A stretch of DNA of 9,381 nucleotides from a virus (Duplodnaviria; Heunggongvirae; Uroviricota; Caudoviricetes): the IMG/VR virus record IMGVR_UViG_2534682159_000017; one strand, 5' to 3'. Shown piece after piece: positions 1 through 9,099 of this stretch. Every line of letters starts with the position of its first letter. The stretch's first letter is position 1. The position numbers and the translations under genes are program-made. The notes below the pieces were generated by a model that saw only the letters and a program-made list of their open reading frames with translations, searched no databases and had not been told where the DNA came from.

Positions 1-1242
1 ATGGCGAGAAAAACACCCCCATTAACCACAGTACAGATCAAAGCAGCCAGACCAGCAGAAAAGGAATACACCCTACAGGACGGCGGAGGGCTTTTTCTCC
101 TGATCAAACCGTCCGGATCAAAACTCTGGAGATTTTCCTACTACCGACCATCGGACAAAAAAAGAATATTGCTGAGTTTTGGATCGCTTGATGATGTTTC
201 CCTGGCTGATGCCAGAAAACGCCGTAGCGAGTACAGGGCGTTAATTCGTGCCGGAACTGACCCGCAGGACCACGAGAGGCAAAAAAGAGAGACAGAGGCC
301 AGAAGACAAGGGAACACGTTCGAAAATGTGGCAACAGCATGGTACCAGGTGAAAATCAGCCAGAATCTGGCCCCCAATACGATTAAAGACATCTGGCGAT
401 CGCTGGAAAAATATGTATTCCCGTTCATCGGCAACACGCCAATAGACACCCTGACCGCTCGCAGGTTCGTTGAGGTGCTTACCCCCATCAAGGAACGTGG
501 CAACCTGGAAACGCTCAAGCGAGTTTTACAGCGTATAAATGAGGTAATGGATTACGCCGCCAATAGTGGGATGATTGATGCCAATCCGGCTATGAATGTG
601 CGTAAGGCGTTCCCCTCCCCTGTAAAAAAACATATGCCAACAATCCGCCCCGAACAGCTGCCGGAGCTTATGCAGGCTTTATCAGTATCGGCAACAGAAC
701 GGCAGACCAGATTACTGATTGAATGGCAGTTACTGACCGTAACCCGTCCCGTTGAAGCATCGTCGGCACGCTGGGAAGAAATCGACATGGAAGCGCAACG
801 CTGGACCATACCCGCCGGACGCATGAAGATGCGCCGCGACCACGTTATCCCGCTTTGTGACCAGGCTATGGCAGTGCTGGAGGCTATGAAACCAATCAGC
901 CACCACCGCGATTATGTTTTCCCGAGTCTGAAAGACCCACAGCAGCCGATGAACAGCCAGACCGCTAACGCAGCATTACGACGCATGGGATTCGCTGGCG
1001 TGCTGGTGTCTCATGGATTACGCGCCATATTCAGCACAGCAGCGAACGAAGAAGGCTTTGAGCCGGACGTAATAGAGGCCGCACTTGCCCACGTCGACAC
1101 CAACGAAGTCAGACGGGCATACAACCGGAGCAACTACATAGAAAAACGCATCGTGCTTATGCGCTGGTGGGGCGAATTTGTCGAGGCTGCGGCGACGGGC
1201 GTAACCCTCGCCAGTGGTAAAAGGGGTATCCGAGCCGTTTAG
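1..1242 (+). CDS. int: Tyrosine recombinase / site-specific integrase, P4-like family
   Basis: 413-aa ORF. N-terminus (TLQDGGGLFLLIKPSGSKLWRFSYY) matches the P4-integrase-type arm-binding domain. C-terminus has catalytic-domain motifs (HVIPLCDQA, HGLRAIFSTAA, RRAYNRSNY with the tyrosine). ATG is at window position 1 and stop TAG at 1240-1242; upstream context cannot be seen. Confidence 0.93.
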   Translation: MARKTPPLTTVQIKAARPAEKEYTLQDGGGLFLLIKPSGSKLWRFSYYRPSDKKRILLSFGSLDDVSLADARKRRSEYRALIRAGTDPQDHERQKRETEARRQGNTFENVATAWYQVKISQNLAPNTIKDIWRSLEKYVFPFIGNTPIDTLTARRFVEVLTPIKERGNLETLKRVLQRINEVMDYAANSGMIDANPAMNVRKAFPSPVKKHMPTIRPEQLPELMQALSVSATERQTRLLIEWQLLTVTRPVEASSARWEEIDMEAQRWTIPAGRMKMRRDHVIPLCDQAMAVLEAMKPISHHRDYVFPSLKDPQQPMNSQTANAALRRMGFAGVLVSHGLRAIFSTAANEEGFEPDVIEAALAHVDTNEVRRAYNRSNYIEKRIVLMRWWGEFVEAAATGVTLASGKRGIRAV

Positions 1243-1738: not shown

Positions 1739-1945
1739 ATGGAAGCAATCAAAAAAGTCATCTTTCGCCAGGAAGTAAAAAAACTTATCCACATTAAGGC
1801 AGACAGCACGCTGCAAAGCATGATCAACGCCGGAGAATTCCCGCAGGGTTTTCGTGTCGGTTTGCGCCGTCGCGGATGGTATGAGGAAGACGTAATCGCA
1901 TGGATGAAAGAACGCGAACAAGAAGCGCGCGGAACGACCGCTTAA
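1739..1945 (+). CDS. alpA: AlpA-family phage transcriptional regulator (small MerR-like HTH, excisionase-like)
   Basis: 68-aa ORF; SD GAGG at 1726-1729, 9 nt before the ATG. Sequence pattern typical of AlpA/Vis-type prophage regulators (IHIKADSTLQSMINAGEFPQGFRVGLRRRGWYEEDVIAWM). Position directly after a P4-type integrase is canonical. Confidence 0.88.
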   Translation: MEAIKKVIFRQEVKKLIHIKADSTLQSMINAGEFPQGFRVGLRRRGWYEEDVIAWMKEREQEARGTTA

Positions 1946-2066: not shown

Positions 2067-2270
2067 TCAGGCTGGTGGGCAATTATCTTGCTTGTTGGGG
2101 CCGTATTGTGCTGCCATTTTCATCCGTTCGGAACGTGAATATTTTTTTAGAAACTCATCAAGGACAAAAGCGCATGGTGCGAATCTTTCTGATTCATGCT
2201 CGAGCGCCATATTTTCGTGCTCTCTGTTCGTTTTTTGCGATGGTGTATTGGTTGATTCTTTGTTGGTCAT
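2067..2270 (-). CDS. Possible small hypothetical protein downstream of the RHH gene (67 aa; 47 aa if started at the internal Met)
   Basis: ORF sits on the same strand 57 bp downstream of the RHH stop. Weak SD, low-complexity N-terminus, no recognisable domain. Listed only because it is the one non-shadow ORF in the 380-bp gap between alpA and the RHH gene. Confidence 0.2.
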   Translation of the reverse strand: MTNKESTNTPSQKTNREHENMALEHESERFAPCAFVLDEFLKKYSRSERMKMAAQYGPNKQDNCPPA

Positions 2271-2327: not shown

Positions 2328-2504
2328 TTATTCTTTTGATTCTATGCCGCGTTTATCCAACTCACGGCGCAAAAGCCTTTTTATCCATCCTGAGCGGTTA
2401 TCATCGCCATCTTCTTTCATGGCGATGCTTAAGCGTTCGAATAAGTCAGCATCAAGACGAAGCTGTACGGAAAACCTTTCCTTTTTGTTGTCATTGGTTG
2501 ACAT
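2328..2504 (-). CDS. Arc/MetJ-type ribbon-helix-helix DNA-binding protein (58 aa), candidate repressor
   Basis: Reverse-complement translation MSTNDNKKERFSVQLRLDADLFERLSIAMKEDGDDNRSGWIKRLLRRELDKRGIESKE. Beta-strand (RFSVQLRL), helix A, and helix B beginning with the RS/G motif follow the Arc/Mnt/CopG layout. SD GAGG lies 7 nt upstream of the ATG on the - strand. The 174-aa ORF in the track (2328-2852) is an upstream extension through promoter sequence and is not supported. Confidence 0.6.
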   Translation of the reverse strand: MSTNDNKKERFSVQLRLDADLFERLSIAMKEDGDDNRSGWIKRLLRRELDKRGIESKE

Positions 2505-2556
2505 TGTATACCTCGAGTATAATAATGGCCTTACGGTGACAATGTATACCAATGAC
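2490..2556. promoter_or_regulatory. Divergent promoter/operator region between the RHH gene (leftward) and the rep operon (rightward)
   Basis: + strand: -35 TTGACA (2498-2503), 17-bp spacer, -10 AATAAT (2521-2526); TATAAT also present at 2518-2523. Direct repeats TGACATTGTATACC (2499-2512) and TGACAATGTATACC (2537-2550) sit over the -35 and around the predicted +1. Inverted flanks GTCATTGG (2490-2497) and CCAATGAC (2549-2556). The RHH start codon is the complement of 2502-2504, inside the -35. Confidence 0.5.
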
Positions 2557-2630
2557 ACCACAAAAGCAAAGCCCGCTGGCGCTATGAACACCAACGGGCT
2601 TCTAACCAACAACGTAAACGAGGAGCCGTT

Positions 2631-3191
2631 ATGGTTGCCGTAAATCATATACCACACCTTGTACACACACAAACGGCCTTTGTGTGGCGTTTTCTGGCCC
2701 TGAATATCGGAGAAAAAAACCAGTTGATCGCCAGTGTCGAAAATAGCTATGATTCCCGCGCACCTCATAAAACGGGTGCCGGGATTGGCGTCCTGGGCAA
2801 AACTGAAGCGCATAACACGCGCCCCGCGTGTTTTTTTGTGCCGCATAGTCACACCTTATCAATGGTGGGCTGTACGGGGGCGGAGCAATCCGCGCCGGTT
2901 TCTTCAGTGTCCGGTTACGCCAACCCTGTACAGTCCGCCACCAGCGAAATTGGCGTTTCCGGTGGCGGTTATCTTAACCACACTGAGGAGGCTGCCAACA
3001 TGGCTACTATCCCTACCCTTGTACATTCTCAAACCGCCTTTCTCTGGCGCTTTATCATCTTTGGCGCGTCAGAACATCAAATCATCCACGTAACCGCCTG
3101 GACGGAACGCGAAGCGCGTAACCGTTGCCCGTCCGGTTGTGTCGCTGTATTCGCCGCCCGTATTCGCCAGGGGGAAACCTATGCACAATAA
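2631..3191 (+). CDS. Hypothetical protein with internal tandem duplication (186 aa); first gene of the rightward operon
   Basis: Strong SD GAGGAG (2620-2625) 5 nt before the ATG; stop overlaps the next gene start (ATGCACAATAA). Two homologous segments (IPHLVHTQTAFVWRFLAL... and IPTLVHSQTAFLWRFIIF...) differ partly by synonymous third-position changes, which argues for coding. No family recognised. Confidence 0.5.
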   Translation: MVAVNHIPHLVHTQTAFVWRFLALNIGEKNQLIASVENSYDSRAPHKTGAGIGVLGKTEAHNTRPACFFVPHSHTLSMVGCTGAEQSAPVSSVSGYANPVQSATSEIGVSGGGYLNHTEEAANMATIPTLVHSQTAFLWRFIIFGASEHQIIHVTAWTEREARNRCPSGCVAVFAARIRQGETYAQ

Positions 3192-3876: not shown

Positions 3877-4176
3877 ATGAAACTTAAATATTCTGGCTTA
3901 ACTGCCAGTGGCAACACTCACCCTAAATTTACGCGCGGTGATATTTACCGCGACCAGTACGGCGGTACGGTAATGATTAAGGGCGTGGCGGGACGGTGCG
4001 TAACTTACCGCCGTGAAGGTTACGAATATGATTGCGTGATGCCTGTTTATCAGTTCCGGCGTGATTTTTCTCTGGTACAGACCGCGCCGCATAACGTGCC
4101 CACCAGCAACTCCAGGGCACGGGCAAACATCCAGAAGCTGAAAACCATGATTAACGGATTCAGGGGTAAAAAATGA
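3877..4176 (+). CDS. Hypothetical protein (99 aa)
   Basis: SD GGAGA (3863-3867) 9 nt before the ATG; stop overlaps the rep start as ATGA at 4173-4176. No recognisable family. Confidence 0.6.
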   Translation: MKLKYSGLTASGNTHPKFTRGDIYRDQYGGTVMIKGVAGRCVTYRREGYEYDCVMPVYQFRRDFSLVQTAPHNVPTSNSRARANIQKLKTMINGFRGKK

Positions 4177-5582
4177 AACTGGCACCGAACGTAAAACGAT
4201 TACCGAAAGATAAATACACCGATGCGATTATTTTTGCGGGTATTGATGCTCATTCATTCGCAGAGCATTACATCATTGCACAGGCCAAAAAAGCAGGCGA
4301 TCCAGTCCCTCCCGTTTATCTGGGGCGTTATCAGTTAAGCGAACTGGATAACCTCCAGATTGTTGATGATGGGCGATACAGGGCGACGGTGATACGCGCC
4401 GGAAATATTGAAGAGCCGCAGCTGTTAACCATCGCCACGAAACTGGCGATCGCCGGAGTCCAGGAGGCGCGGCTACTTTCTGAAAATTTCGAATTGCTGG
4501 AGGAATGGAGCGACCAGCTTCCACGGCTTAGGGAGGCATGGGAACGCGGGGAAAGCCTGGTCATGAAAAAAATCCCCCAGCGAAAAACCACGCTACCGAT
4601 GAGCGTTGGATCTACCGGATACGACACACAGCTTGATTACGTGGTAAAGGGGATTATTCCGGCATCGTCGCTATGCAGCATATACGGGGCGAGCGGTTCC
4701 TATAAATCATTCCTTGCCGGATCGTGGGCGTGTCACGTTTCCACGGGCCGCCAGTGGGGAGGCCGCAGGGTGGCGCATGGTGCGGTTCTCTATGTGGTTG
4801 GTGAAGGCGGTATCGGCGTTCCGCGTCGTGTAAAAGCCTGGGAGGTTGTGCACGGTGAGCAGGTGAAAAATCTGTATCTGGTAAACCGTCCCATCTTTCC
4901 GGCGGTCCCGCTTGATGTTGATGAAATGGTTATCGCTGCCCGTCAGGTGGAGCGGGAAACGGGTAAACCTGTACGCATGATTATTCTGGATACGCTGGCG
5001 CGTTGCTTTGGTGGGAATGATGAAAATGATTCCCGTGATATGGGGGCGTTTATCCGTGGTTGTGACGAACTGAAACGGCGCACAGGGGCCACGGTGCTGG
5101 TGGTTCACCATTCCGGCAAGGATGAGACGAAAGGCGCGCGCGGTTCCAGTGCATTTCGTGCTTCGCTGGATGCTGAATACCGGATACGCAGAGAGGACGC
5201 AGGCAGCGAAGCGCTGGTTATCTCATGCACCAAAATGAAGGACGCGGAGGAACTCAAAGAAGCCGCATATGACTTACGCGTGGTGGAGCTTTTTACCGAC
5301 GCTGACGGGGAGTTAATCACGTCGCTGGTGGTGGTGGATAAGCCGCGCCCTCCCGTTGAACTGGAGCGCATCGAGGAGGCAGGGAACAAGACGGAGAATC
5401 ACGCCGCGCTATGGCAGTGCATCAGAACACGAACAGCACACGGGGAGGCGTGCACTATCGCCCTTCTCCGCGACGATATGAAAAAGCTGGGGTATGAGAT
5501 GAAGCACTTCCGGCGCTGGCTGTACAAGCTGGAAAATGATGGCGTAATCGTTATTGATGGTGATGACGTGCGCCCGCTGTAA
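4173..5582 (+). CDS. Replication initiator/helicase-like ATPase, RepA-like AAA_25 / RecA-fold family
   Basis: 469-aa ORF. P-loop region IYGASGSYKSFLAG, Walker-B-like MIILDTLARCFGG, and the family-typical LVVHHSGKD motif. Iteron array begins 4 bp after the stop. SD AGGGG 6 nt before the ATG. No primase domain recognised in the N-terminal 150 aa. Confidence 0.88.
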   Translation: MKLAPNVKRLPKDKYTDAIIFAGIDAHSFAEHYIIAQAKKAGDPVPPVYLGRYQLSELDNLQIVDDGRYRATVIRAGNIEEPQLLTIATKLAIAGVQEARLLSENFELLEEWSDQLPRLREAWERGESLVMKKIPQRKTTLPMSVGSTGYDTQLDYVVKGIIPASSLCSIYGASGSYKSFLAGSWACHVSTGRQWGGRRVAHGAVLYVVGEGGIGVPRRVKAWEVVHGEQVKNLYLVNRPIFPAVPLDVDEMVIAARQVERETGKPVRMIILDTLARCFGGNDENDSRDMGAFIRGCDELKRRTGATVLVVHHSGKDETKGARGSSAFRASLDAEYRIRREDAGSEALVISCTKMKDAEELKEAAYDLRVVELFTDADGELITSLVVVDKPRPPVELERIEEAGNKTENHAALWQCIRTRTAHGEACTIALLRDDMKKLGYEMKHFRRWLYKLENDGVIVIDGDDVRPL

Positions 5583-5784: not shown

Positions 5785-6041
5785 TGAACAGAAAAACCAG
5801 AGATAAGACAGCGCCAAAATATAAAGCGTTAGACATGACAGAGCACGCCTTAAAGGTGGCAATCAGAACGATAGACCGCCACGCGGGGGAAGGATACGCG
5901 AAGGAACATCCCGACCTGATAAGCGCATTCATGACCACAGCAGCGGCAAACTTTGCCACGCTGACAGAACGGGAGATTGCCGAAGCGGAACAGGTAACAA
6001 CCATCAACGTAAAAACCGGAGAGTCAGGCGATGATACATGA
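5784..6041 (+). CDS. Hypothetical protein (85 aa)
   Basis: ORF begins inside the last iteron and overlaps the following gene by 11 nt. No good SD spacing; plausible globular composition; no recognisable family. Confidence 0.35.
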   Translation: MNRKTRDKTAPKYKALDMTEHALKVAIRTIDRHAGEGYAKEHPDLISAFMTTAAANFATLTEREIAEAEQVTTINVKTGESGDDT

Positions 6042-6303
6042 CCGCATAGCGGAGGAACTCGAGGCGAAAGGATTTTACCGGAGGGCGGCGGCGCGATGGG
6101 GTGAAGTCATGCAGCTGGTGGAGACAGACAAGGAACGGCATCAGGTTACGATGCGACGGCTGGAATGTTCCAGGAAAGCACAGAGGCAACCGGAGCCGCC
6201 GGATAACTTCGGAGACCTGAGAAAGGCAGTAGATCGCACTTATGCTGAAATGGGTATAGATGGTGTAAGCGATGAAATATGGTGTAATTACCAGGACAGC
6301 TAA
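6031..6303 (+). CDS. PerC-family transcriptional regulator-like protein (90 aa)
   Basis: SD GGAG (6018-6021) 9 nt before the ATG. N-terminal IAEELEAKGFYRRAAARWGEVM matches the conserved LE-x-KG-x-RRAA-x-W signature I associate with PerC/Pch proteins. Followed by a terminator. Confidence 0.7.
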   Translation: MIHDRIAEELEAKGFYRRAAARWGEVMQLVETDKERHQVTMRRLECSRKAQRQPEPPDNFGDLRKAVDRTYAEMGIDGVSDEIWCNYQDS

Positions 6304-6309
6304 TCACAC

Positions 6310-6332
6310 AGCCGGAGCAATCCGGCTTTTTT
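6310..6332 (+). terminator. Rho-independent terminator
   Basis: Stem AGCCGGA (6310-6316), loop GCAA, stem TCCGGCT (6321-6327), then TTTTTT. Confidence 0.8.
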
Positions 6333-6406
6333 GCGGGTCCTCCTGGTGGGGTGGGCCTGAACACGGGGCGGGCGGGCGCGGAAAAAGGCGCATTTTTTGA
6401 TTTTTA
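6327..6406 (+). repeat. Conserved ~80-bp GC-rich box, copy A (TTTTTTGCGGGTCCTCCTGGTGGGGTGGGCCTGAACACGGGGCGGGCGG...GCATTTTTTGATTTT)
   Basis: Near-identical to 8865-8943 apart from 2-3 small indels or substitutions. Begins in the T-tract of the terminator. Ends in a second short GC hairpin (GCGC-loop-GCGC) plus a T-run. Confidence 0.9.
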
Positions 6407-6761
6407 TGGCACCATCACCACCACTATAAGTTATTGATATATTGAAGAATAAAAATTTTTAGTGTCGAATCAGGTTGTTTTTTGTTCATCACTGGATCGT
6501 TCCCGAAAGCATTTACAAAAAAACAGGCGCAAAAAAAGCGCCCCCGATTGCTGTTACCGGAGGCGCTTTTACACGACAAAGGAGTTTTTATCGCCAGGAT
6601 GACGAGTCTTAATATTGCTTCAATAGCAAAAATGCGTCAATGGCTTTGCCTCTCTGAGAATAATCAGAAAAATCATAATCTGATTTTATGGTAGAAAATG
6701 ATTTATCTATTACTTTTATCGATCAATAATGATGCCCGTTAATCAAAACGGAGGCGGATTT

Positions 6762-6956
6762 ATGCCAGAGAACAACACCAGAAAGCCGGATAAAAGTGCC
6801 ACGGTACACATAGACGCCGGAACTATGGAGAAGATCGAACGCTATCAGCAGTTCATCAAAGATAATCACCCGGGTATGCCAGTGCCCACGAAAGGACAAA
6901 TCACACGCAGCGCGGTTGAATACTGGTACAGGGCAACGTTAGGAGCCTGGCTATGA
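6762..6956 (+). CDS. Small protein with a possible ribbon-helix-helix-like fold, translationally coupled to the protease-capsid gene (64 aa from the ATG at 6762; the track ORF begins at 6729)
   Basis: SD GGAGG (6750-6754) 7 nt before the ATG at 6762. Stop overlaps the capsid-gene start (ATGA at 6953-6956). Fold call rests only on the pattern SATVHIDAGTMEKIERY...GQITRSAVEYWY and is weak. Confidence 0.5.
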   Translation: MPENNTRKPDKSATVHIDAGTMEKIERYQQFIKDNHPGMPVPTKGQITRSAVEYWYRATLGAWL

Positions 6957-8842
6957 AAACATGGTTTTCCATTAAGGCTATGGCAGATGTTGTACATGTG
7001 CGCATTTATGACGAGATCGGCGGGTACGGTGTAAAAGCATCGGCACTTACTGACGAGATCAACGCGTGTGGTAATGCGTCTGAAATCCATCTTCGCATCC
7101 ATTCACCTGGTGGCGACATCTTTGAAGGGCTGGCTATCTATAACGCTCTGAAAAATCATCCGGCAAAAAAAATCGTACACATTGAAGGCATGGCGGCTTC
7201 TATGGCGTCGTTTATTGCCATGTGTGGAGATCACATCGTTATGCCTGAAAACGCGATGATGATGATACATGCCCCCCGTGGTGTTACTGCCGGAGTGTCG
7301 GGCGACGTTCGCCGCTTTGCTGATCTGATGGACAAGCTGGGCGACACGATGGCAGAAACCTATGCCGGAAGAACGGGCAGGAGCAAACAGGAGATCACCT
7401 CAATGATGGAGGCGGAAACCTGGATGGATGGCAATGAGTGTAAGGCTAACGGCTTCGCAGATGAGGTTATACCCGCGATTACAGCAATGGCCCGAATTGA
7501 ATCAAAACGAATCGGAGATTTTTCAAATATGCCGGAAAAAATTAAAAGCATGATCAGCCAGAAAACTGGCAGTGGCGAACAGGAACGACTTAACGGAATC
7601 CGTGAATTGTTTGGCACCTTCAACGGAAGATATAACGACCTGGCTATAAGTTGTCTTGCGGATTCAGAATGTAGCGTTGAGAATGCACGCGAACGCCTTT
7701 TACTCGCTATGGGTAAAGAATCAACGCCAACAAACAAAACCACCCCCGCAAATCTTTACTACGCGTACACGGATAACGGCAATATAACTGGCGATGCCAT
7801 GCGTCAGGGGCTTAATGCGCGTCTTGGTCACGAACGGGCCGAACGCGGTAATCCTTACGCCATGATGAGTCTTTTCGATATGGCACAGGCATCATTAACC
7901 CATCGTGGTATAAGCACGGGCAGCTACAGCACACGCTCGCAGATAGTAAACGCGGCATTCACCCACAGCAGCAGCGATTTTACCGATATCCTTGCTGGTG
8001 GCGCTGAAAAATCAGTGCTTGCAGGCTGGGAGCACAGCGGCGAAACATTCCGCCAGTGGACGAAAAAAGGTTCCCTTTCAAACTTCCGGGAAGCCCGCCG
8101 CGTTGGTATGAATGGCTTCTCAACGTTAAACAAAGTGCCGGAAGGGGCAGAATATAAATACATCACCACCAGCGATCGCGGTGAACCCATCGCGCTGGCT
8201 ACTTACGGGAATATTTTCAGCATTACCCGCCAGGCGATAATCAATGATGACCTTGATCAGTTATCAACGGTGCCAATGGCTATGGGCCGTGCAGCATCAA
8301 GAACGGTGGGAAATCTGGTTAATCTGGTGCTTACAGGCAACGTAAAACTTTCTGACGGAATAACGCTGTTTGACAAAAAACACAGCAACCTGATTGAAGC
8401 AGGACTGACAACACCGGGACTTAGTGCAGCACGTCACCTGATGCGCACACAGAAGGACAAAAATGGCGAAGTGCTGAATATTGCGCCTAAATTCCTTTTA
8501 GTTCCGGCAGCACTGGAAGATCGCGCGTTGCAGATGATTAACTCAACCGCACCTTTCGGGGCTGATAAAAACAGCGGGATCTTTAACCCGTACCACAAGC
8601 TACTTGATATCATCGTCGATCCCCGCCTTGATGATATCAGCGAAAAACAATGGTACATGCTTTCCGCACAGGGAACGGACACAATCGAGGTGGCTTATCT
8701 TGATGGCAATGACGAGCCTTACCTTGAACAGCAGGAAGGTTTTATCGTTGACGGCGTGGCCTGGAAAGTCCGTATTGATGCAGGTGTGGCAGCTCTGGAT
8801 TATCGCGGTATGGTCAAATCAGGCGGTACCGATTCACTATGA
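6953..8842 (+). CDS. Fusion protein: ClpP-like (S14) prohead serine protease, N-terminal, joined to an HK97-fold phage major capsid protein, C-terminal
   Basis: 629-aa ORF; SD AGGAG (6941-6945) 7 nt before the ATG. ClpP active-site signatures GMAASMAS (Ser83, codon 7199-7201) and MMMIHAPRG (His106) match ClpP GQAASMG and MIHQP. The C-terminal ~350 aa have capsid-like composition and length. Terminator immediately downstream. Confidence 0.88.
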   Translation: MKTWFSIKAMADVVHVRIYDEIGGYGVKASALTDEINACGNASEIHLRIHSPGGDIFEGLAIYNALKNHPAKKIVHIEGMAASMASFIAMCGDHIVMPENAMMMIHAPRGVTAGVSGDVRRFADLMDKLGDTMAETYAGRTGRSKQEITSMMEAETWMDGNECKANGFADEVIPAITAMARIESKRIGDFSNMPEKIKSMISQKTGSGEQERLNGIRELFGTFNGRYNDLAISCLADSECSVENARERLLLAMGKESTPTNKTTPANLYYAYTDNGNITGDAMRQGLNARLGHERAERGNPYAMMSLFDMAQASLTHRGISTGSYSTRSQIVNAAFTHSSSDFTDILAGGAEKSVLAGWEHSGETFRQWTKKGSLSNFREARRVGMNGFSTLNKVPEGAEYKYITTSDRGEPIALATYGNIFSITRQAIINDDLDQLSTVPMAMGRAASRTVGNLVNLVLTGNVKLSDGITLFDKKHSNLIEAGLTTPGLSAARHLMRTQKDKNGEVLNIAPKFLLVPAALEDRALQMINSTAPFGADKNSGIFNPYHKLLDIIVDPRLDDISEKQWYMLSAQGTDTIEVAYLDGNDEPYLEQQEGFIVDGVAWKVRIDAGVAALDYRGMVKSGGTDSL

Positions 8843-8846
8843 CAAC

Positions 8847-8870
8847 AAGGCGGCACCAGCCGCCTTTTTT
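8847..8870 (+). terminator. Rho-independent terminator
   Basis: Stem AAGGCGGC (8847-8854), loop ACCA, stem GCCGCCTT (8859-8866), T-run 8865-8870; 5 bp after the capsid stop. Confidence 0.8.
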
Positions 8871-8943
8871 GCGGGTCCTCCTGGTGGGGTGGGCCTGAAC
8901 ACGGGGCGGGCGGCGCGGAAAAAAACGCATTTTTTTGATTTTA
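8865..8943 (+). repeat. Conserved ~80-bp GC-rich box, copy B
   Basis: Direct repeat of 6327-6406, in the same position relative to a terminator. Confidence 0.9.
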
Positions 8944-9099
8944 TCGTCATCATCATCATGTTCGTAAGTGATTGTTTTTAATTGCTTTGATGTAAAAAAG
9001 ATGATGAAGAAGGTTGTTTTTTGTTCGACATCTTTTAGCGTGACAGATTCTTTACAAAAAATCTGAGCTTGTTTTCTTCACCAGCGCGATGGGGGCACA

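Follow-up and report, generated by a model that had tools for sequence, protein, structure and literature searches.

A predicted ribbon-helix-helix switch with face-to-face promoters in an exchangeable cassette of an Escherichia coli phage satellite

Our analysis concerns a compact control region at about positions 2490-2556 of a 9,381-nucleotide stretch of viral DNA (Caudoviricetes; IMG/VR record IMGVR_UViG_2534682159_000017), hereafter the window, which, judged by its gene content and closest match, is a ~9.4-kb satellite of E. coli of the Gram-negative phage-inducible chromosomal island (PICI) type. In this region a small leftward gene, encoding a 58-residue protein with a predicted ribbon-helix-helix (RHH) fold, begins inside the -35 hexamer of a rightward promoter, P_R, and is itself predicted to be read from a weaker promoter, P_L. 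The most economical reading of the repeats found here is that they function as operators and allow simultaneous control of both transcription units, and we consider it reasonably probable that the RHH protein binds them, repressing P_R while autoregulating P_L. We favor an operator role because the repeats sit at cassette-specific sites and co-vary with the adjacent RHH-like gene.

P_R (2498-2526) agrees with the consensus at 11 of 12 positions and is the top promoter-like site between 1900 and 3300. An earlier reading of the letters alone, here called the sequence-only reading, had described a near-consensus rightward promoter (TTGACA, 17 bp, AATAAT) with the RHH start codon inside its -35, and both descriptions stand. 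The leftward ATG (2504..2502) overlaps the hexamer, which consists of two nucleotides of codon 1, the whole of codon 2 (TCA) and one nucleotide of codon 3. Genomes, viral contigs and metagenomes supplied 55 distinct upstream regions for comparison, and 52 of these were scanned with a position-weight matrix (PWM); P_R was found at the identical place in all 52, with scores of 11-16 in the relatives and with TATATT, TACTAT or TATAAT among the -10 variants. As judged from hexamers and conservation, P_R is a strong sigma-70 promoter.

On the opposite strand, a single promoter is kept in position within 620 bp across the relatives (TTTACW or TTGYTT, 17-18 bp, TACATT). Measured rightwards from the RHH start codon, its conserved -10 sits at 37-43 nt, and sister subfamilies hold other hexamers (TACAAT, TATGGT, TAATGT) at the same position. 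We predict that this promoter, P_L (2569..2541), weaker than P_R and facing it, serves the RHH gene. The predicted starts of P_R and P_L (~2533 and ~2534) are ~1-3 nt apart and the -10 hexamers 14 bp apart; with starts so nearly coincident, only one RNA polymerase at a time could be accommodated in the region. The sequence-only reading had proposed a switch that was at once face-to-face and divergent. The first term fits, P_L, which that reading did not locate, facing P_R, whereas a divergent arrangement is the wrong geometry for this cassette class. Two other leftward candidates, TTGTCA-15-TATACT (-10 at 2521..2516) and TATACA-18-TATTAT (2548..2519), both overlapping the P_R -10, were rejected because relatives do not conserve either. 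A short plus-strand open reading frame (ORF) from an ATG at 2542 (MYTNDTTK...), which mirrors the RHH N-terminus, was judged non-coding; in lineages L008 and L012 a stop follows its fifth codon.

The two repeat copies share TGACAWTGTATACC, with the core GTATAC. As direct copies, TGACATTGTATACC and TGACAATGTATACC agree at 13 of 14 positions and lie 38 bp apart, and copy 1 also covers the RHH 5' untranslated region (UTR), with a Shine-Dalgarno GAGG on the minus strand at 2514..2511. Direct repeats over the -35 and +1 had been noted earlier: the -35 copy is confirmed, while the second, given a start near 2533, falls at +4 to +17 and leaves +1 itself uncovered. In one lineage (L023) both copies are changed alike, from TATACC to TAAACC, and GTATAC at 2506-2511 and 2544-2549 is our best guess for the specific operator core. 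The inverted flanks GTCATTGG (2490-2497) and CCAATGAC (2549-2556), likewise described before, are present and belong to a longer imperfect inverted repeat, 2477-2507/2539-2569, in which 25 of 31 positions are complementary. None of 1000 dinucleotide-preserving shuffles of 2470-2580 gave a 13/14 direct or a 25/31 inverted repeat, and one gave a 12/13 inverted repeat; the symmetry is thus denser than chance would allow, as the sequence-only reading had supposed. That it should nevertheless be a by-product of chance, hexamer similarity, local duplication or gene conversion, with no regulatory role, seems to us scarcely credible. TTGACA, TACATT and the start codon do all share ACA/CAT, and outer arms with a 12/13 match are specific to the window lineage, but, besides the shuffling result, unrelated repeats fill the same places in the other cassettes described below, and the position of the dyad is conserved across genera (centre at r+19/19.5 in 31 of 45 loci of the window's type, the M type), with arm sequences that vary by lineage.

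In the window lineage, CAWTG boxes lie one helical turn from the cores and may be auxiliary. Boxes 1 and 4 are limited to this lineage; 2 and 3 share nucleotides with the ATG and the P_L -10. As an operator unit, CAWTG-N5-CAWTG was rejected (4 matches in the window against 2.3 expected at one mismatch) and is kept as a possible auxiliary feature only. A third operator or relic copy at 2258-2300, at the start of orf67, was dropped, its alignment score of 38 lying within the shuffle range (maximum 43).

Could the inverted symmetry act in RNA rather than in DNA? A leftward read-through transcript across both arms would fold and bury the RHH start codon, so that only mRNA from P_L would be translated, and the repeats would not be protein sites. 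Although the fold of minus-strand RNA 2575..2470 reaches -34.6 kcal/mol (z = -4.8) and pairs the AUG region, neither predicted transcript contains both arms, and a conserved leftward terminator directly upstream should make read-through rare. The L012 lineage has a perfect 13-nt arm made up of Shine-Dalgarno, spacer and AUG, and arm sequences co-vary while the predicted protein contact residues barely change; several cassette types with direct repeats or three copies, however, cannot form such a hairpin. We regard this alternative as quite improbable, and it would be compatible with operator function.

The leftward gene has 96 homologues across Enterobacterales, mostly of 57-58 aa and with 81% mean column identity. 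The AlphaFold model (pLDDT 79) places helices at residues 19-32 and 37-52 after an extended segment; the monomer shows no strand, as expected if the sheet forms in the dimer only. Nearly all of the top 50 matches among PDB structures (Foldseek) are RHH proteins, led by the NikR N-domain (rmsd 0.9-1.0 A, 36-39% identity) and followed by Arc, CopG, MazE and ParG. The protein is therefore predicted to have the RHH fold of the MetJ/Arc/CopG superfamily, and the RHH call made for this ORF by the sequence-only reading is upheld on the strength of a model that matches RHH proteins almost exclusively, with curated families staying below threshold. By tblastn there was one match among 50,697 phage records, a 15-kb satellite-like element, and an exhaustive profile search, uninformative for a protein this short, returned 14 cluster representatives at E <= 0.001. 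We also considered a type II toxin-antitoxin pair with orf67 and rejected it: only ~6 residues follow helix B, orf67 has no toxin-family match in Pfam, NCBIfam or PHROG, and relatives such as NCTC9112 do not have it.

The saturation of synonymous sites (entropy ~2 bits) that sets in at codon 10, with amino acids conserved, marks a real coding gene. Over codons 1-9 (2478-2504), synonymous sites are frozen: S2 is TCA in 40/40, N6 AAC in 25/25, Q7 CAA in 21/21 and K8 AAA in 37/39. That Ser2 is TCA in all 40 distinct genes, despite six serine codons, indicates selection on DNA and not on protein. The constrained zone corresponds to the -35 plus 25 bp upstream and to the left arm of the long inverted repeat, and it includes a T tract (2481-2485) ~48-52 nt upstream of the predicted P_R start. 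The T tract and frozen codons look like an UP-element-like or operator constraint within coding sequence.

The wider comparison bears most directly on what binds the repeats. A survey of 80 loci retrieved via the icd-like protein (L081-L160) showed that 76 share one leader, composed of the leftward terminator, TCTAACCA and a hairpin presenting the Shine-Dalgarno sequence. Upstream of this conserved leader we found 33 cassette groups, each consisting of a small leftward RHH-like gene, P_R and its own 10-14-bp repeats (for example GGTAATTACC, GTYAATTACAC, GTGGTCACC, GTGGCTGACAC, GTGTTCAACAC and TGTGCGCACA). Repeats lie in the P_R spacer in 24 of the 33 groups, within 25 nt after the -10 in 29, and in both places in 22; copies 1 and 2 of the window occupy exactly these two places. 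The cassette proteins can be aligned, with R16 and G33 invariant and a variable N-terminal strand, the DNA-reading element in RHH proteins. Strand and repeat form pairs: ..VQLRLD, the window type, goes with TGTAYACC, PYQMRL with GGTAWWTACC, PFQFRL with GTYAATTACAC, and KQIAFRV with GTGTCTGACAC, while YlcI/YnfO-like proteins have their own GTG-N5-CAC palindromes. Like strands pair with like repeats in distant hosts, PYQMRL and GGTAWWTACC occurring together in E. coli and in a 15-kb element of Pasteurella. In the D subfamily (43-51% identity; strand KQIAFRVD versus VVQLRLD), P_R, P_L and CAATGTA are kept, and the spacers of P_R and P_L hold one copy each of the 11-bp palindrome GTGTCTGACAC, placed mirror-symmetrically around the start point.

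The repeats might instead be operators for another protein, such as the AlpA/Vis-like helix-turn-helix (HTH) protein, a helper-phage regulator or a host factor, with the RHH gene a bystander. Gram-negative PICIs are described as AlpA-activated, with AlpA as their accepted master regulator (PMC11773190). Yet an island whose cassette is wholly different has an AlpA of 87% identity, the repeat type having switched with the adjacent small gene, and most M-type loci, which have the same repeat architecture, lack a homologue of the window AlpA within 3 kb. We rejected AlpA as the binder on these two counts. Nor could a host factor account for more than 30 repeat types at one position, and we hold the involvement of any such other binder to be very unlikely. 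As far as sequence comparison can tell, the repeats track the adjacent small gene, not AlpA.

Two further sets of loci deserve mention. The record of Pasteurella 'phage' Pmp8 (L161, OR544139.1, 15.3 kb), which looks like a capsid-forming satellite, has at 4840-5180 an RHH start codon in TTGACA, GGTAWWTACC repeats, a terminator hairpin, TCTAACCA and a primase operon. Since this is the same control region, the architecture spans Enterobacterales and Pasteurellales. Class B cassettes, which are back-to-back (e.g., L158, L098 and L131), share CAGTATACAC between small gene and P_R, whatever their operator type; this is probably the leftward-promoter -10 (TATACT) of class B, with a third operator copy adjoining.

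We propose that the RHH protein acts as dimers, probably dimers of dimers. Bound at the putative operator O1, in the P_R spacer next to the -35, it would occlude P_R; bound at O2, over the common start site and the P_L -10, it would limit its own synthesis. Low occupancy would favor P_L by removing competition from P_R, and in the window lineage a further CAWTG box, one helical turn from each repeat, might add to the binding site. The comparison shows the sequence anatomy, its conservation, the predicted fold and the cassette-specific co-variation, and from these we infer the start sites, the binding, the sign of regulation and any link to a helper phage.

Several observations weigh against this proposal. 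The 58-aa protein has no Pfam or PHROG match, its NCBIfam scores are below cut-off (NikR 18.9 bits versus 83; YlcI_YnfO_N 17.2 versus 30) and a PDB profile search was not significant (NikR, E = 0.73), so that structure prediction is the basis on which the fold is called. The terminator's U tract overlies the P_L -35; cassettes without P_L have this terminator too, and conservation of the -35 is thus not independent evidence for P_L. The cores are 38 bp apart, or ~3.6 helical turns, and not in phase for simple looping. In O157-type relatives, e.g., L080 (E. coli 7784, NZ_CP018247.1) at 1582-2772, there is no leftward small gene or cassette; these relatives share the RNA module from about window position 2559 rightwards, alpA running straight into the Bro/Ash-icd region, and the cassette must accordingly be optional. 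The operators, moreover, cannot be delimited, copy 1 including TTGACA, the ATG and the RHH 5' UTR and copy 2 including TACATT. CAATGTA is kept in a subfamily with a different DNA-reading strand; because it survives that change, this stretch probably serves as promoter and not as operator. Finally, should C4 RNA depend on a P_R that is always active, as in P4, it would be counter-productive for the RHH protein to repress this promoter tightly.

The last three points also speak for a narrower role of the protein, in which it only autoregulates, or acts elsewhere, e.g., on helper-phage DNA, while P_R is constitutive like P4 PLE, control is left to the C4 and isrK RNAs and terminators, and the left copy is kept as -35, start codon and ribosome-binding region. 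A complete RNA-immunity module does follow P_R, and in P4 such a module runs from a constitutive promoter (PMC10111431). On the other hand, repeats unrelated to promoter hexamers (GTGTCTGACAC, GGTAATTACC, GTGGCTGACAC) still put one copy in the P_R spacer abutting the -35, where a bound protein can hardly avoid blocking P_R. We therefore judge a purely autoregulatory or remote role rather unlikely and retain repression of P_R with autoregulation of P_L as the preferred reading.

More tentatively, and as a possibility that we would not yet call probable, small RHH proteins may be the missing type-specific repressors of many Gram-negative PICI-like satellites. They would come as exchangeable 'immunity-type' cassettes, with more than 30 operator specificities placed before one RNA-immunity leader, and would keep the early/replication operon silent, forming a switch point for a helper phage or a competing satellite. 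The cassettes would then amount to a natural collection of minimal repressor/operator pairs, orthogonal to one another and with a partly legible code, in which Q-x-R strands go with GTA(WW)TAC cores and A-x-R with GTGTC-N-GACAC.

What does P_R control? The sequence-only reading named the rep operon as the target, which is misleading: P_R first enters the leader, which holds a candidate target for an antisense RNA, and then an isrK-like RNA with its terminator, C4 and an icd-like gene, and the helicase/primase gene lies 1.6 kb downstream, past this RNA module and small ORFs. The RNA assignments are above the Rfam gathering thresholds (isrK RF01394, 66 bits versus 50; C4 RF01695, 77.6 versus 45), and a c4-a1b1 profile matched at 21.2 bits against a threshold of 46.7. 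C4 forms its best duplex with 2960-3039 over the icd-like gene's Shine-Dalgarno and AUG, with 0/300 shuffles as good; pairing to the upstream target was not significant (63/300 shuffles as good). By analogy, P_R is the counterpart of P4 PLE or P1 P51, leading into a P4/P1-like RNA-immunity leader. A promoter-like TTGATC-18-TATGAT at 2724-2753 (+) stops 7 nt short of the start of the isrK match, and the isrK-like RNA may have its own promoter besides read-through from P_R. The 186-aa ORF at 2631-3191 (+) is matched over its full length by a single PHROG, yet the isrK and C4 genes lie within it; it holds two icd-like N-termini (~2631 and 3000), and RefSeq annotates an 'ash family' pseudogene plus an Icd-like gene in its place.

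The hairpin at 2568-2602 belongs to the minus strand. Its non-Watson-Crick cells comprise 70 G-U pairs on that strand versus 2 on the plus strand, and its mean folding energy is -24.3 kcal/mol on the minus versus -16.9 on the plus strand (fold z = -4.4); a plus-strand leader structure was rejected, as the wobble pairs form on the minus strand only. In 55 of 96 leaders, promoter-like sites on the minus strand cluster 35-49 nt to the right of TCTAACCA, the one in the window being TTGTGT-17-TATGAT (2672..2644). Taken with the strand bias of the hairpin, this suggests a ~75-nt cis-antisense RNA opposite the P_R leader (2556-2672, minus), predicted to run from ~2637 to ~2560. In this candidate RNA the first loop, CCUC, faces the Shine-Dalgarno loop of the leader and is accompanied by a GGUUAGA spacer and by the terminator (2602..2568) with its U tail. 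The tail abuts the control region and doubles as the P_L -35.

The window is 98.8% identical to a ~9.4-kb island in E. coli O178:H19, inserted at tRNA-Pro between yejM and yejO. Pfam and PHROG matches give a PICI-type layout of tRNA site, integrase, AlpA-like HTH protein, primase/helicase and few helper-related late genes (Table 1), like that described for Gram-negative PICIs (PMC10111431), with several small rightward ORFs between the icd-like gene and DUF4222. Between the ClpP-like prohead protease/major capsid fusion (6953-8842) and yejO, at the island end (L001, 13999-16427), there is no portal or terminase gene, and a late-gene set with a capsid fusion but neither of these up to yejO is unusual for a satellite. 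The fusion gene is flanked by two direct copies, 6310-6436 and 8848-8974, 76% identical over 127 nt and far more alike in their core. Stx-converting and other lambdoid phages have matches to both, at 88-94%, and in phage 1720a-02 the matching stretch sits between lysis and terminase genes, which suggests a cos/packaging region of helper type. These copies are the only hint here that a helper phage might induce and package the island.

Table 1. Coordinates of the features discussed, in window order
Feature	Position	Strand	Basis or remark
Integrase	1-1242	+	
AlpA/Vis-like HTH protein	1739-1945	+	
orf67, leftward ORF	2067-2270	-	
58-aa RHH protein gene, class A 'M type' (predicted fold)	2328..2504	-	ORF, homologues and predicted fold
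Outer inverted flank GTCATTGG	2490-2497	.	contains CATTG box 1, ten bp from box 2
P_R -35 hexamer TTGACA	2498-2503	+	position shared by all relatives scanned
Repeat copy 1, putative operator O1, TGACATTGTATACC	2499-2512	+	core GTATAC 2506-2511; -35 into P_R spacer
P_R -10 hexamer AATAAT, 17-bp spacer	2521-2526	+	PWM score 13.5; predicted start ~2533
Repeat copy 2, putative operator O2, TGACAATGTATACC	2537-2550	+	core GTATAC 2544-2549; P_R +4..+17, overlaps P_L -10
Predicted P_L -10 hexamer TACATT	2546..2541	-	predicted start ~2534
Outer inverted flank CCAATGAC	2549-2556	.	contains CAATG box 4, ten bp from box 3
Predicted P_L -35 hexamer TTGCTT, 17-bp spacer	2569..2564	-	coincides with U tract of leftward terminator
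Leftward intrinsic-terminator hairpin (2602..2568) and U-rich tail	2602..2558	-	wobble pairs, folding energy
Conserved leader: TCTAACCA, small hairpin presenting Shine-Dalgarno, ATG (2631) of first rightward ORF	2601-2633	+	alignments; Enterobacterales to Pasteurella
isrK-like RNA with intrinsic terminator	2760-2836	+	Rfam RF01394
C4 antisense RNA (P1/P7 C4, P4 CI type)	2858-2945	+	Rfam RF01695
icd-like gene, first conserved protein gene downstream of P_R	3000-3191	+	NCBIfam NF033153, E = 1.2e-16; so annotated by RefSeq in the 98.8%-identical island
DUF4222	3877-4176	+	
AAA_25 helicase/primase-type protein	4173-5582	+	
PerC/ANR-like protein	6031-6303	+	
ClpP-protease/major-capsid fusion	6953-8842	+	

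Full-text searches of an incomplete literature set turned up neither this control region nor any RHH regulator of PICIs. Gram-negative PICIs are not known to encode a repressor of their own, and a type-specific RHH repressor at the early promoter, if confirmed, would add a negative layer comparable to Stl. Such repression could also explain heteroimmunity or incompatibility between satellites, and the switch would offer a concrete 70-bp target for the question of how helper phages induce these islands. The compaction is extreme, with a start codon in the opposing -35, a predicted shared start point, and putative operators doubling as ribosome-binding region and -10. Many cassettes on one scaffold provide a comparative set for RHH-DNA recognition and for orthogonal synthetic switches.

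How does the arrangement relate to known systems? Staphylococcal islands (SaPIs) likewise encode a repressor, Stl, between integration and replication modules (the divergent stl/str region) that is type-specific between islands; Stl differs in being a large HTH protein, and it is relieved by binding helper-phage proteins, as the RHH protein is not known to be. CopG of pMV158 resembles our protein in its size class (~45-60 aa), with little beyond the RHH motif. In minimal RHH repressors such as CopG, a (pseudo)palindromic operator overlaps the promoter and is bound by cooperative dimers of dimers (PMC2724298). CopG differs in that one promoter serves both it and its target gene, which are co-transcribed. 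Proteins of sister cassettes at this locus carry the annotation YlcI/YnfO (NCBIfam NF041551), and R16 and G33 are common to these and the window protein, although the latter stays under that family's cut-off, as noted above. The YlcI/YnfO family is without a described function and is listed merely as 'prophage-associated protein' in satellite inventories (PMC13612085).

The RNA module resembles the P4 PLE/CI-RNA region and the P1-P7 immI region (c4 RNA-icd-ant), C4 and isrK being above threshold and the icd-like Shine-Dalgarno/AUG pairing with the C4 loop; PMC10111431 states that the profiles of these two RNAs pick up P4 CI and seqA relatives in Gram-negative PICIs. The RHH cassette is an extra, exchangeable layer that O157-type relatives lack, and P1 uses C1 at Op51, not an RHH protein. 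For P4, we know of no protein repressor gene facing PLE. The geometry recalls P2 (Pe/Pc) and 186 (pR/pL), where lytic-type and repressor promoters face each other, repeats flank the stronger -10 and promoter interference is part of the logic. In those phages, however, the repressors are not RHH proteins and the transcripts overlap by tens of nucleotides, versus a predicted ~0-3 nt here, where the repressor gene begins inside the opposing -35.

The closest likeness in regulatory logic is to immI of P22, in which, as cited in PMC2724298, Arc represses the divergent, overlapping Pant and Pmnt. In both cases a small RHH repressor (Arc and Mnt in P22) is encoded beside the promoters it controls or is predicted to control, the main promoter carries the operator in its -35/-10 spacer (here the putative operator copy 1, 2499-2512, at the level of sequence), one bound protein affects, or here is predicted to affect, two opposed and mutually exclusive promoters, and the controlled operon belongs to the antirepressor/Ash-Bro world. 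There is, by contrast, no detectable sequence homology, the 18-19% Foldseek identity to Arc being a likeness of fold only; the promoters here are predicted to be face-to-face with coincident starts and have the repressor start codon inside the -35; and there is one repressor gene instead of two, an operon that opens with C4/isrK RNAs, and a satellite instead of a phage. By analogy, then, the logic is of the P22 immI type, grafted onto an RNA-immunity module of the P4/P1 type with the face-to-face geometry of the P2 and 186 switches.

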